Made by a program: the position numbers. DNA of 49,705 nucleotides, taken from contig JBDHHQ010000072.1 of assembly GCA_039589315.1 (NCBI GenBank), positions 1 to 49,705 on the forward strand, read 5' to 3'. Shown one piece after another: positions 33,001 to 36,000 of the stretch (position 1 is the stretch's first letter; each line of letters starts with the position of its first letter). The DNA comes from Gemmatimonadota bacterium. GTDB lineage: Bacteria; Gemmatimonadota; Gemmatimonadetes; Longimicrobiales; Gaopeijiaceae.

Positions 33001-36000
33001 TTGCCGATGCCGGGTCGTGACCTGGCGTTCTCCACCGACACTTTCGTGGTTCATCCGCTCGAGTTCCCGGGAGGCGACATCGGCAGCCTGGCGGTTCACG
33101 GCACCGTGAACGATCTCGCGATGATGGGGGCAGAGCCCCGGTACCTCGCAGCGGGCTTCGTGCTGGAGGAAGGGCTGCCGTTCGCAGTATTGGACCGGGT
33201 GGTCGCGTCCATGGCTCGGGCCGCAGAAGCCTCGGGCGTGACGATCGTCGCGGGGGACACCAAAGTCGTCGAGCGCGGAAAGGCGGACGGCCTCTACATC
33301 AACACGACGGGGATCGGCACGCTCGCCGACGGTTTCCGCCCGGAACCCACGCGCTCCCGAGTCGGCGATGCGGTGCTCATCAGCGGCCCACTGGGCCGGC
33401 ACGGGATCGCCGTGATGACGGCCCGAGGCGAGCTCGGACTGGAAACCGACGTGACGTCGGACTCGGCAGCGCTCCATGAGCTCGTCGCCCGGCTCCGCGA
33501 CAACGTGGGGCAAGGCGTCCACGTGCTGCGGGATGCCACGCGAGGCGGCATCGCGAGCGCGCTGAACGAGATCGCCTCGGACGCGCAGGTGGGCATTCGC
33601 TTGCAGGAACACCTCATTCCGGTGCCGCCGCCCGTGTATGCCGCCTGCGAAGTCCTGGGCCTGGACCCGCTCTACGTAGCCAATGAAGGCGTGTTGGTGG
33701 CGCTGGTCGCTCCCGACGACGCCGACCGAGCTCTGGCCGTGCTACAGAGCGATCCCCTCGGGGCCCAGGCGTCGATTGTCGGCAGCGTCGTCGCCGACCA
33801 CCCAGGCATGGTCGTGCTCGGTACCGGGCTCGGCGGCACTCGAGTCGTGGACATGCTCCCCGGCGCGCAGCTGCCGCGAATCTGCTGAGGCGGGAACCGA
33901 AGTCGAGTCGACGTCCACGCATGGCCGGCCGCGCTCGAATCGCGCTTTCCCGGCCGTCAAGCCGTAAGGCGCCGCGTCAGCTCCTGGATCGCCTGGACCG
34001 CGGGAGCCCGGTCGTCGTAGTCGATCGGTGCCGCCCTACTCCGCTCGCAGGCGAGGAGCGTGTCGTCGTAGGGCACGTGCGAGACCAGAGACAGGTCGTG
34101 CGCGTCACAGAATGCCCGGATCGCCTTCTCGTCTTCTTCATCGCGCACCTTGTTGGCCACGACCACCACCCGACCGATGTCCAGCTCGCGGGCGAGCGCC
34201 GCGGCTCTGCGAGCGGTCTCCATTGAGCGGAAGTACGGTTCCATGACCGCCACGAACGTGGAGACGTGCCGACCCGTGCCGCGGGACAGATGCTCGAGAC
34301 CCGCCTCCATGTCGATCACGAGGTCACGGGAGTCATCCTCCCGTGAGACCAGCTCACCGACGAGGCCACGGACCGTGGCGTGGGCTCGGCACATTCAGCC
34401 GACGCCCGAATGGTGAATGGTGCCCATGATCAGCATGCGGACGCCGTCCGGTGCATCCACGCCGTACCGATCGACGATCTCGCCGGGATCCGCCGCGAAT
34501 ACCGATCGGGTCGTTCCGTCGGGGCCGGTCGTCCGTTCGAGCAGGTCGCGTGGGAGATCCACGATCTCCTGGGTCCGCTCGGACGGCAGACCTAATACAC
34601 TGGCCAGGTTGGGATTGGAATCCGCGTCGATCGCAAGAACCTGTCGGCCCGACCTGGCGAGCGATCGGGCCAGCGTCCCGGCGATCGTGGTCTTGCCGCT
34701 GCCTCCCTTCCCGGCCACCGCGATACGCATCAGGCCGCTCCGTGTCGGGAGTGGTCGCGGTGTCTGCAGGCGGCCGGGTCGTTCATGCAGTCGCAATCGG
34801 GATCGTTGCACTCCCCGTGTCCCTGGGACAGGAGTGGTGCGAACGCCTCCTGGAACCGGCGCCCAGCCTCGCGCCTGCCCACCGAGGTGAGCTGGTACCG
34901 GACGGGCTCGCCTGCGATCACATCCACGTCGCCCCGTGCCACGAGACGGTCCAGCAGCAGCGCGATGTCGGTCTGGGAATACGTGAGGAAGCGGGACAGA
35001 CGTTCAACGGTAGCCTCCTCGGCGAATCCCTCACCCTGCATCCAATACAGCACCTCGAGCAGCTCGTCGAGCTGCTGAACGAAGTGCTCGGCGGCATGGC
35101 CTCCGGCTGGTGGCTCGTCTCGTTCGTTCATTGCTTATGACCGCTTTGGAAGAAAGGGTCCAGAAGCTCCAGGACGGCCTCGGCCGCTGGCCCGACCTGC
35201 GCCTGCACGGACGGGCTCAGCTCTTCCGTGAGCTCGTCCACGCCGTTTGGCTCGCAACCCACCATCCAAACACGTTCCGGTAGAGCGTCCAGAGCCTTCG
35301 CCACCGAAAGTGCAGGAGCCGGCGTGGCCAGGTGGAGATCCACCAACGTGGCCGTCGTGACCTGTTCAACTTCGAGAACGTAGAGCGTGCCGGGCGGTCC
35401 GTCTCGGTGCATGGCGTCCACGACCACCAAGCCATCATACCCGGCCAGGAGCTCCTGGGCCAAACGAAGCCCGCCGGTCCCCACGTGGAGCAGCTCGACG
35501 CACCCGAGCTCCGATTCACGAGCTTGCAGCGCCTCCAGGACCCGAATCCCGAACGCGTCGTCGCCGCGGAGCTCGTTCCCGAAGCCGGCGACCAACACGC
35601 GTCTCATGGCCCGCGTCCTTCGACGGCCACCTGCACCTGGCCATCCAGGATGCGCACCGGAACGGGGATCAGCCCCGGCTCCTCCGGTCGATCCACCCGC
35701 TTCCCCGATACCGGGTCGTATCGGCACCCATGCCAGGAGCACACCAGCACGCCGTCCTCCACCTGACTGAAGTGGAGCGGAAGCGGGCTGCTGCCACAGC
35801 GGTTCCGGAAGGCGCCGATCGCGTCACCGTTCTCGAGCAGCAGAACCGAGCCCTCCTGCCCGAGGGGCGTGATCGCCACCGGCCCGGCACCCTTGAGCTC
35901 CCGCACTTCGGCCACGGTTTGGAAGGACTCGGCCCCCGGCGGCCGACGTCGCTCGAGCTGCACCAGAGCGCCGGTTGGCGCACTCCACGGGCGTTCGCCG

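Follow-up and report, generated by a model that had tools for sequence, protein, structure and literature searches.

A predicted selenocysteine-containing CooC-type ATPase encoded with a [NiFe]-hydrogenase in Gemmatimonadota

Does a single in-frame TGA at the end of a [NiFe]-hydrogenase operon separate two small genes, or does it encode selenocysteine (Sec) within one nickel-handling ATPase? The question is raised by contig JBDHHQ010000072.1 of a Gemmatimonadota bacterium (GCA_039589315.1; completeness, 95.19%), from which the whole analyzed stretch of 49,705 nucleotides is here called the window. Under translation table 11, two ORFs (34395 to 34811 and 33957 to 34394) correspond to the two halves of a CooC/MinD-type P-loop ATPase gene (Table 1). 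The survey's finding had joined these two gene calls into a single gene of 257 codons, and this holds: when TGA is translated as Sec, positions 33957 to 34730 of the minus strand yield 257 codons whose sole internal TGA is codon 112, and the terminal stop is also a TGA. From the sequence evidence presented below, we consider it highly probable that UGA codon 112 is decoded as Sec. The reading as a whole, a Sec-containing CooC-type ATPase with a Sec site that would deliver nickel to the adjacent hydrogenase, we put at roughly 70%.

Table 1. Features of the window that surround the TGA-containing ATPase gene.
Feature	Coordinates	Strand	Remarks
hypF	28893-31325	+	hyp block 28893..33888 convergent with the ATPase gene
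hypC	31328-31633	+	hyp block
hypD	about 31630-32810	+	hyp block
hypE	32815-33888	+	hyp block
CooC/MinD-type P-loop ATPase gene	33957..34730	-	257 codons, then a TGA stop; deviant Walker A at the N terminus (GKGGSGKTT); metal motif H107-x4-U112-M-C114-x2-H117
SECIS-like hairpin GCCACG-GUC-CGUGGC	34365..34379	-	6-bp stem, apical-loop G-U, begins 18 nt past the U in UGA
In-frame UGA, codon 112	34395..34397	-	falls on Cys112 of CooC1; TGC/TGT in 50 of the best 80 of 99 relatives
P133 (P0002), 133 aa	34730..35131	-	weak winged-helix N-terminal part; conserved C-terminal H-x2-C-x4-C-x-C-x6-C; its stop and the start of the ATPase gene overlap (ATGA)
Hydrogenase maturation endopeptidase, HupD/HycI type	35128..35742	-	PF01750, E 4.2e-19; TIGR00072, 119.5 bits; true start probably about 35607
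NifU-like + Rieske [2Fe-2S] protein, HylE/HhyE-like electron-relay candidate	35604..36779	-	given ORF start probably too far upstream
Second, degenerate protease-like ORF, 184 aa	36470..37024	-	TIGR00072, 42.4 bits, below the cut-off of 47.45
[NiFe]-hydrogenase large subunit, 631 aa	37035..38930	-	motifs RACGVCGGVH and DPCMPCTTH; best PDB match 5aa5 (group 1h HofG), 518.9 bits
Five short ORFs separating the small from the large subunit gene	38944..40440	-	hydrophobic single-helix-like N-termini (translations read by eye); group 1l HylTM1-5-like arrangement
[NiFe]-hydrogenase small subunit	40447..41748	-	upstream of the five short ORFs
Nik/Opp/Dpp-family ABC importer: substrate-binding protein, permease, fused ATPases	41790..47458	-	candidate nickel importer; upstream, same strand

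The best solved relative of the ATPase is CooC1 of Carboxydothermus hydrogenoformans (3kje, 3kjg, 3kjh, and 3kji), the nickel-insertion factor of Ni,Fe-CO dehydrogenase. It was the top match of a phmmer search against the PDB (3kje; E 4.7e-31; 111.4 bits; query residues 1 to 226), as the survey had reported, and the next PDB family, MinD, followed at 49 bits. Because G-V-G-U-M-C-R of the window protein aligns with G-S-Q-C-Y-C-R of 3kje, U112 is placed on Cys112, the first Cys of the C-x-C motif of CooC1, again as first proposed. The two proteins have in common a deviant Walker A, a D-M-x-A-G-x-E-H switch region, and the C-x-C positions 112 and 114, which in CooC1 make up the metal site between the two subunits of the dimer. 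They differ in the Sec that replaces the first motif Cys, in the residues flanking the motif (invariant H107 and H117 in the window ATPase, K and N in CooC1), and in gene setting, with the window gene lying in a [NiFe]-hydrogenase cluster and not beside cooS. Searches of Pfam and NCBIfam matched general P-loop and SIMIBI-class families and no CooC-specific model. The N terminus reads M-R-I-A-V-A-G-K-G-G-S-G-K-T-T, and across 45 aligned sequences G7, G10, G12, K13, T14, and T15 of the Walker A are invariant and K8 is nearly so. In the metal motif, the invariant columns of the ATPase alignment are H107, G111, C112, C114, and H117; column 112 is Cys or Sec in 81 of 81 sequences, and the second motif Cys is present in 80 of them, with Ser in one (L078).

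Searching GTDB species genomes for relatives returned 99, the best 80 of which were analyzed (42 to 79% identity). In the MAFFT column of codon 112 these carry TGA (30), TGC (44), or TGT (6), which resolves all 80 into 30 TGA and 50 Cys forms, where the earlier count had been 29 TGA, 46 Cys, and 5 unresolved. Carriers of the Cys form that are in culture include Pseudonocardia kunmingensis and Amycolatopsis marina. Together with the window gene, the 30 TGA loci form a set of 31 genes that is spread over eight phylum labels and shows no further in-frame stop. Each TGA locus has one TGA within its first 200 codons and then continues to a full length of 248 to 266 aa (one, L052, ends at a contig edge), and protein similarity crosses the TGA within single tblastn segments. 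Taken together, the recurrence of TGA at one codon across these phylum labels, the lack of any further stop, and the unbroken similarity exclude a chance origin of the conserved TGA. The stop codon itself is the one point in favor of a pseudogene or of a TGA introduced by sequencing or assembly error. This explanation is contradicted by the comparative data, with TGA at the same codon in 31 independent assemblies, no other stops or frameshifts, and full-length similarity at 42 to 79% identity, and we assign it a vanishingly small probability. A different genetic code was likewise rejected, as TGA also terminates the gene itself and the orthologues stop at the same position.

The family had been described as widespread, which is borne out across phyla but needs qualification within them, since the distribution is patchy: among 150 further genomes sampled from the host phylum, a single one contains a close homologue. 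In a quick tree (IQ-TREE, 80 rows with the truncated L052 left out, SH-aLRT only), the Sec label needs 2 changes only, and a Cys-form Chthoniobacterales clade is nested among Sec forms; the direction of the Sec-to-Cys changes is not fixed by this midpoint-rooted tree.

The two gene calls would be right if UGA terminated translation and a second half-protein were begun at the adjacent ATG by termination-reinitiation. In the window, the TGA does lie immediately 5' of an ATG, gene callers and public records give two proteins, and the true stop of the gene is of the same kind. However, termination would divide the metal motif between two chains, and the codon that follows the TGA is CTG or CTA in 10 of the 31 TGA genes and AAC in one, rather than ATG. 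A stop is found at the neighboring codons in no family member, and termination leaves unexplained both why TGA always replaces a Cys codon and why the TGA form has a hairpin of its own. We therefore regard termination as very unlikely.

This SECIS-like hairpin, noted in the survey 18 nt past the TGA, was found at that place in the window (Table 1). A register-free scan (stem of at least 5 bp, GU in the loop, 18 to 32 nt after the codon) recovered such an element in 30 of 31 TGA genes versus 5 of 50 Cys genes. For the named 5-pair helix, 81.3% of cells are paired across all 31 TGA sequences versus 68.1% in shuffles, and double-change cells number 25 versus 7.7, with 0 of 500 shuffles as high; in slid registers, 17 to 54% are paired. 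The length of the hairpin ranges from 5 to 8 bp across clades. It occurs in three registers in different clades, for which reason RNAalifold yields 3 pairs only (about 0 kcal/mol) when given all 31 TGA sequences. Part of the conservation is owed to the protein level, as the hairpin lies inside the coding sequence for a conserved H-A-x-V-R peptide. The geometry expected of a bacterial SECIS is that of bSECISearch-type models, and a comparable hairpin follows the UGA of the host selD.

The host encodes complete Sec machinery, with all four markers over cut-off (tRNA-Sec, 75.1 bits; SelB, 335 bits; SelA, 531 bits; SelD, 370 bits), and its SelD gene carries a TGA of its own. Of the 30 other genomes with the TGA form, taken from the best 80 of 99 relatives, 29 have at least one Sec marker over cut-off, and none was detected in the remaining one, a MAG (G024). 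The presence of the machinery does not discriminate between the two forms, since SelA is as common with the Cys form (38 of 50 genomes) as with the TGA form (25 of 30) among these same relatives. Low-level UGA read-through occurs in bacteria, and a near-cognate Cys- or Trp-tRNA, for example, could give a full-length product that is not a selenoprotein. No finding here points to such selenium-free read-through specifically, whereas leakage would mean low yield and would make a conserved hairpin unnecessary. In addition, Sec markers accompany the TGA in the host and in nearly all other carriers, and the hairpin is of the same kind as the host selD element in its distance from the UGA and its G-U loop. 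We judge this explanation highly improbable. The exchange of Sec and Cys in one column, the TGA-specific hairpin with its covariation, and the complete Sec machinery of the host agree with the U-x-C CooC-type selenoprotein that was originally suggested, in which UGA 112 would be decoded by SelB and tRNA-Sec under the guidance of the small downstream hairpin.

If the ATPase is a selenoprotein, which protein would it serve? Its gene is the last of an operon that runs from the small subunit through five short ORFs, the large subunit, the Rieske protein, HupD, and the Cys/His-rich P133 to the ATPase, with the Nik-like importer upstream. The importer ATPases score above cut-off as NikD (388.4 bits) and NikE (402.3 bits), and the NikA-like binding protein (170.8 bits) falls below its cut-off of 393. 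The gene order agrees with the description of group 1l, where small and large subunit genes are split by five short transmembrane ORFs and followed by Rieske and HupD genes (bioRxiv 10.1101/2020.08.06.239558); the best solved relative of the large subunit belongs to group 1h (5aa5), and we refer to the hydrogenase as group-1l-like and take it to be an oxygen-tolerant enzyme that oxidizes hydrogen. Hydrogenase genes also accompany the relatives: within 4-kb flanks of the 30 TGA loci from the best 80 of 99 relatives, a HycI/HupD-type protease was found at 25 and a large subunit at 18, where the earlier figures were 24 and 17 of 29 loci within 3 kb.

In the maturation of [NiFe]-hydrogenases, nickel is canonically inserted by the pair HypA and HypB. 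Neither HypB (TIGR00073, E <= 0.001) nor HypA (PF01155) was detected in the whole host genome, which is 95.19% complete. Among the best 80 of 99 related genomes, 71 contain a [NiFe] large subunit, 19 contain HypB over cut-off, and 25 contain HypA. In 46 of the 71 hydrogenase-bearing genomes neither protein was detected, a result that is weak for most of them, as they are largely MAGs of unknown completeness. Where HypA is present (25 of the best 80 of 99), it often lies beside a second hydrogenase. The Ni-CODH gene of the host (cooS) is located on another contig, with a Cys-form CooC paralogue directly downstream that is 37% identical to the window ATPase; the latter adjoins hydrogenase genes, not cooS. 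Given its position at the end of the hydrogenase operon with a Nik-like importer upstream, the lack of detected HypA and HypB, and the separate Cys paralogue beside the Ni-CODH, nickel delivery to the hydrogenase appears to be its likeliest role, one that we favor with some reserve. The survey's view of a nickel chaperone for the neighboring [NiFe]-hydrogenase is upheld as regards the hydrogenase neighborhood, here and in relatives, and the failure to detect HypA/HypB in the host, while the role in nickel insertion derives from context.

In the mechanism that we propose, two U-x-C motifs would meet in an ATP-bound dimer, as in CooC1, and form a Se2S2 site with the invariant His107 and His117 on either side. 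Ni(II) would bind there and, on ATP hydrolysis, pass to the client. As client we propose the large subunit of the group-1l-like [NiFe]-hydrogenase encoded next to the ATPase, prior to cleavage by the neighboring HupD. The ATPase would probably partner with P133, encoded directly upstream, and the pair would replace the undetected HypA/HypB. As a ligand, Sec is in general softer and more acidic and better withstands oxidation, properties that may suit an aerobic host. For the binding of nickel, the choice of client, and the pairing with P133 alike, we draw on homology and gene neighborhood.

A true selenoprotein ATPase could also act without delivering nickel, either as an Fe or Fe-S carrier (Mrp/NBP35/ApbC-like) to the small subunit or the Rieske/NifU-like protein, or as a metal-free ATP-driven enhancer of P133 that resembles the Mrp/MinD-type HypB of Thermococcus. 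At the N terminus of the ATPase, Pfam also finds NifH (PF00142) and the iron-transfer family NUBPL/ParA (PF10609; E 2.1e-8), a ParA/MinD/Mrp-type ATPase (3vx3) is found at E 5.7e-4, a NifU-like + Rieske gene lies two genes upstream, and P133 has a conserved Cys4/His site of its own. Yet over its full length the protein resembles CooC1 (111 bits) far more than it does MinD or Fe-S carriers, none of which exceeds 49 bits, and the motif is the C-x-C of CooC rather than the C-x-x-C of Mrp/NBP35. Moreover, nickel insertion is the step for which the host has no detected protein, and the importer upstream is Nik-like. We consider these other roles unlikely, and nickel delivery is kept as the preferred role in what follows.

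Homologues of P133 were found at 55 of the best 80 of 99 loci, in three different gene orders. Searches of Pfam, NCBIfam, PDB profiles, and the ESM Atlas gave only a weak winged-helix likeness and unnamed clusters. On these features, we propose that P133 is a metal-binding partner or a nickel-sensing regulator, and its winged-helix features would fit a regulatory function in place of that of a chaperone. Binding between the two proteins was modeled for the Cys-form orthologous pair of one related locus (L061) in place of the window proteins, with two ATPase copies, ATP, and Zn. The predicted complex scored 0.48 against 0.00 for the best control, at least 57% of contacts agreed between runs, and the pLDDT of the partner was at least 69. 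Of 157 solved complexes, 116 reach the pass mark, compared with 2 of 215 mismatched pairs; passes at scores of 0.60 or less comprise only 18 of the 157 solved complexes and both of the mismatches. The prediction for this orthologous pair therefore lends weak support to ATPase-P133 binding.

Among known systems, the proposed route resembles HypA/HypB in NTP-driven delivery of nickel to the large subunit before C-terminal cleavage and in having its genes grouped with hypCDEF and that of the protease. HypB, a G3E GTPase, is unrelated in sequence class to the ATPase of the window, which is of the SIMIBI type. A closer parallel in class is found in Thermococcus, where a MinD-class ATPase, the Mrp/MinD-type HypB, stands in place of the HypB GTPase in hydrogenase nickel insertion and works with a small metal-binding partner; it is not known to hold nickel itself. 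The structure 3vx3 is presumably this protein from Thermococcus kodakarensis, and 5aun-5auq presumably show it with HypA. Its similarity to the window ATPase (E 5.7e-4) is confined to the N-terminal P-loop, and the archaeal protein has neither C-x-C nor U-x-C.

Is the selenoprotein family new? A catalogue of 119 prokaryotic selenoprotein families from 2026 has no MinD/CooC/ParA-class entry (PMC13188914, Table 1), and an orthologue is divided between two protein entries in public records, both of which observations agree with the claim of a new family. The further claim of a first Sec-bearing metallochaperone is overstated, because the same table includes a CobW-related selenoprotein (NF041053, UxxC) and CopZ-family selenoproteins, besides a HesB-like protein (PMC13188914, Table 1). 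The CobW-related and CopZ-family members are, like the window ATPase, predicted to have Sec for a metal-ligand Cys in a metal-handling or chaperone-type protein (PMC13188914), but they differ in fold and NTPase class (G3E GTPase; ferredoxin-like CopZ), have other motifs, and lack a link to hydrogenase. The literature searched, including passages of PMC9312934, PMC12013277, and PMC13056359, yielded no description of this selenoprotein, although supplementary tables could still hold the family. In hydrogen metabolism, Sec is known as a nickel ligand of [NiFeSe]-hydrogenase (PMC13188914). In those enzymes, which belong to anaerobes, Sec is part of the active site, whereas the large subunit of the window has cysteines (DPCMPC) and the Sec would reside in the putative maturation factor for a group 1h/1l-like enzyme of aerobe type.

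The selenoproteins known from bacteria are mostly redox enzymes, and their hosts anaerobes. If the present reading is true, a selenoprotein family absent from the catalogue (PMC13188914) would be present in aerobic soil lineages, and a systematic annotation error that files one gene as two fragments would be corrected. The natural Sec and Cys forms would offer a ready comparison of the effect of selenium on the metal site of a metallochaperone. The ATPase would also provide a candidate protein for nickel insertion into hydrogenases thought to be a main sink of atmospheric H2. More tentatively, and short of an even chance, the Sec ATPase and P133 may form a selenium-dependent, HypA/HypB-free nickel route for the high-affinity hydrogenases of group 1l/1h type, tolerant of oxygen, that soil bacteria in many phyla use to consume atmospheric hydrogen. 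Were that so, trace-gas hydrogen oxidation in the lineages that carry the Sec form would need a supply of selenium as well as nickel.

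The two ORFs that translation table 11 yields here (34395-34811 and 33957-34394; public records list the two halves individually, at 111 and 145 aa) read through as one 257-codon frame on the minus strand that carries a single internal TGA, which bears out the survey's finding that two gene calls are one CooC/MinD-type ATPase gene. A deviant Walker A motif (MRIAVAGKGGSGKTT) opens the protein. Among solved structures the best match is Carboxydothermus hydrogenoformans CooC1 (3kje; E 4.7e-31 over residues 1-226), and the MinD family comes next at 49 bits. U112 and C114 are matched by the two cysteines of C-Y-C in CooC1, likewise at chain positions 112 and 114, and the TGA indeed falls on the first Cys of the C-x-C motif. 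The Pfam and NCBIfam models that match the ATPase are all of general P-loop families (PF01656 CbiA and others); none is a selenoprotein model. No further stop interrupts the frame for about 90 codons beyond the terminal TGA (open frame, 348 aa); we take this TGA as the true stop because orthologues terminate at the corresponding position. In the short gap before the convergent hypE, the TGA is followed by a GC-rich inverted repeat, GGCCGG...CCGGCC. By far the best reading of the UGA at codon 112, to which we give a probability of roughly 90%, is that it encodes selenocysteine (Sec).

Features of the hydrogenase region (window) and related host genes on contigs C5 and C17
Feature	Position	Strand	Remark
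Kinase/FGE-sulfatase ORF	24988-27441	-	Ser/Thr protein kinase domain joined to formylglycine-generating enzyme-like domain
hypF, hypC, hypD, hypE		+	convergent on ATPase gene
Inverted repeat	33921-33960		
CooC-type ATPase gene	34730 to 33957	-	conceptual read-through; ends at second TGA
Internal TGA	34395-34397	-	codon 112
Hairpin GCCACG-GUC-CGUGGC		-	starts 18 nt after U of UGA
P133 (133-aa protein)	34730-35131	-	with ATPase gene, downstream end of same-strand series
HupD-type protease	35128-35742	-	clear match
NifU-like plus Rieske protein		-	between the two protease ORFs
Degenerate second protease-like ORF	36470-37024	-	TIGR00072 42.4 bits, below cut-off; directly after large subunit
Hydrogenase large subunit	37035-38930	-	closest solved relative group 1h 5aa5, 518.9 bits
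Five short ORFs	38944-40440	-	hydrophobic N-terminal helix in each
Hydrogenase small subunit	40447-41748	-	
Nik/Opp/Dpp-family ABC importer	41790-47458	-	NikD and NikE above cut-off; NikA-like binding protein below its cut-off
selD (L016)	C5:69192-70112	-	370 bits
cooS, Ni-CO dehydrogenase catalytic subunit	C17:61835-63621		TIGR01702, 518 bits
Cys-form CooC paralogue	within L102 (C17:62333-66103)		directly after cooS

We compared the best 80 of 99 relatives from GTDB species genomes, each with one tblastn segment spanning the TGA position. In the MAFFT alignment the motif codon is TGA in 30, TGC in 44, and TGT in 6, within a shared motif H-A-G-x-G-[U/C]-x-C-x-x-H, and every TGA gene contains exactly one such codon and is otherwise full length. 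By record title, the TGA loci belong to Acidobacteriota (14), Gemmatimonadota (6), Actinomycetota (5), and one each to Binatota, “Ca. Entotheonella,” Fervidibacterota, Verrucomicrobiota, and Chloroflexota, in line with the proposal that the TGA is kept in several phyla while other homologues have Cys. In a quick maximum-likelihood tree (80 rows, truncated L052 left out, motif residue masked, midpoint root only) the Sec label needs two changes, and 13 Chthoniobacterales Cys forms make up a clade nested among Sec forms. The family was also described as widespread; this holds for the eight phylum labels, yet its distribution is broad but patchy, and of 150 further genomes sampled from the host's phylum, just one contains a close homologue, which likewise has one TGA.

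Thirteen unpublished genomes enter the codon, hairpin, tree, Sec-marker, Hyp, and neighborhood tallies (G013, G023, G029, G034, G038, G042, G051, G056, G061, G066, G067, G068, and G076, with loci L033, L043, L049, L054, L058, L062, L071, L076, L081, L086, L087, L088, and L096). Without them the ratio of TGA to Cys loci is 28:39 rather than 30:50, and no conclusion rests on them alone, the sole such detail being the Sec marker of G023. Loci L043 and L044 are nearly identical (branch lengths ~0.004) in MAGs labeled Actinomycetota and Chloroflexota, respectively, which could reflect a binning error or recent transfer. Actinobacterial loci give two to five tblastn segments apiece; in Pseudonocardia kunmingensis (L061:2681-4765), further CooC-like paralogues flank the Cys-form orthologue, among them a partial copy and a gene of 280 aa encoded on the other strand (A-A-G-C-M-C-G-G-H).

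The GC-rich hairpin reported after the TGA is present in the window and recurs among the relatives. A register-free scan (stem of at least 5 bp; loop of 3 to 8 nt including GU, with the GU 18 to 32 nt past the codon) finds it in 30 of 31 TGA genes, the window counted in, versus 5 of 50 Cys genes (Fisher p = 6e-16, overstated as the sequences are related). Stems are clade specific with complementarity kept (GCCAC/GUGGC, GCUGC/GCAGC, GCUAC/GUAGC, AUGCCGC/GCGGCAU, and GGCGC/GCGUC). Across the 31 sequences, 81.3% of cells in the named 5-pair helix are paired versus 68.1% after shuffling, and 25 are double changes versus 7.7, with 0 of 500 shuffles as high in either case; slid registers pair in 17 to 54% of cells. 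Unpaired cells come mostly from one clade in which the hairpin is shifted by two columns, and this shift also makes RNAalifold on the whole TGA set uninformative. In the Chthoniobacterales Cys forms (L047-L070), a partly complementary AUGC...GCAU lies where Sec relatives have AUGCCGC-GGU-GCGGCAU and may be the remnant of a SECIS since lost.

The host genome (6.67 Mb, 95.19% complete) encodes tRNA-Sec (75.1 bits), SelB (335 bits), SelA (531 bits), and SelD, itself a selenoprotein with its own UGA in G-A-G-U-A-C-K and a 7-bp hairpin starting 10 nt past it. SelA is found in 25 of the 30 other TGA-bearing genomes, and four of the remaining five have SelB or tRNA-Sec above cut-off; the Chloroflexota-labeled MAG G024 is the sole TGA carrier in which searches for SelA, SelB, and tRNA-Sec found none. 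Since SelA is equally common with the Cys form (38/50), the machinery fits recoding but does not discriminate (24/28 versus 30/39 without the unpublished genomes).

The claim of a new family agrees with a review from May 2026 (PMC13188914), whose Table 1 gives 119 prokaryotic selenoprotein families and subfamilies, none of them a CooC, MinD, ParA, or PF01656-type ATPase. That table does include a CobW-related selenoprotein (NF041053), CopZ-family selenoproteins, and a HesB-like protein; the ATPase would therefore not be the first Sec-bearing metal-handling protein, and the priority claimed for it as a metallochaperone is not supported. Searches by term in the text of PMC9312934, PMC12013277, and PMC13056359 do not turn it up, and a full-text literature search, supplements aside, found no paper describing a CooC-type selenoprotein. 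In public databases the Entotheonella orthologue is filed as two proteins, an “AAA family ATPase” of 112 aa (WP_089936898.1) and a “hypothetical protein” of 146/139 aa (ETX07516.1, WP_179137348.1), and Cys-form relatives are annotated “CO dehydrogenase maturation factor” or “AAA family ATPase.” A genuine CooC-type selenoprotein gene is well supported, and it is unrecognized in the catalogue and annotations checked.

The large subunit scores at most 185 bits against groups other than 1h. According to bioRxiv 10.1101/2020.08.06.239558, group 1l clusters run from small subunit through five short membrane ORFs to large subunit, Rieske protein, and HupD, an order shared by the window cluster; we call it group 1l-like as a reading from gene order. 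The second short ORF ends in C-P-G-C-P-G-C. The importer directly upstream of the operon is a candidate nickel importer. A single ORF of 881 aa combines its ATPase domains, and the N-terminal part of this ORF may represent a second permease.

The host has hypCDEF and a protease, and neither HypB (TIGR00073) nor HypA (PF01155) has a match anywhere in its genome at E <= 0.001. Its CO dehydrogenase has its own CooC (motif A-A-G-C-L-C-P-E, only 37% identical to the window ATPase), and the selenoprotein copy therefore belongs to the hydrogenase cluster. The match to the host cooS is divided between two neighboring frames (518 and 151 bits), so this gene may carry a frameshift or assembly error; an FAD-dependent oxidoreductase-like ORF also follows it. 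In the genomes of the same best 80 of 99 relatives, a [NiFe] large subunit occurs in 71, HypA in 25, and HypB above cut-off in 19, and 46 of the 71 lack both HypA and HypB (58, 18, and 14 of 67, and 40 of 58, without the unpublished genomes). HypA/HypB, where present, are often found next to a further large-subunit gene on a different contig. Because most of these genomes are MAGs, absence from any one of them is weak evidence; the Cys-form isolates G041 (9.1 Mb) and G053 (7.0 Mb) also have a large subunit without HypA or above-cut-off HypB. Neighborhoods support the proposed tie to the [NiFe]-hydrogenase, as in the host cluster: TGA and Cys loci have a protease neighbor in 25/30 and 4/50, a large subunit in 18/30 and 17/50, HypC in 2/30 and 30/50, and P133 in 24/30 and 31/50, respectively.

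No curated family was found for P133, which shows weak winged-helix likeness and a nearly invariant C-terminal H-x2-C-x4-C-x-C-x6-C (H105, C108, C113, C115, and C122), often followed by a His-rich tail. Its gene lies immediately upstream, ~430 bp upstream, or 1 to 2.4 kb downstream of the ATPase gene. A complex predicted from the Cys-form L061 orthologues in place of the window proteins (two ATPase copies, ATP, Zn, and P133) scores 0.48, with the best control at 0.00, at least 57% of contacts agreeing between runs, and partner pLDDT of at least 69. Of 157 solved complexes, 116 reach the pass mark, as do 2 of 215 mismatches; passes at 0.60 or under comprise only 18 of the 157, plus both mismatches. 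This prediction weakly supports ATPase-P133 binding. P133 may handle metal as a HypA-like partner or, alternatively, sense nickel as a regulator.

Starting from the observed recoding signals, the homology to CooC1 including its metal motif, and the genomic context, ATP-dependent dimerization would create an Se2S2 site with H107 and H117 flanking it. Nickel would be supplied by the Nik-like importer and handed to the large subunit ahead of HupD cleavage, in place of HypA/HypB. Selenocysteine offers a lower pKa, a softer ligand, and reversible oxidation, and on such general chemistry it would be advantageous in an aerobic host. A role for the ATPase in inserting nickel into an oxygen-tolerant hydrogenase is plausible in genomes where HypA/HypB are undetected.
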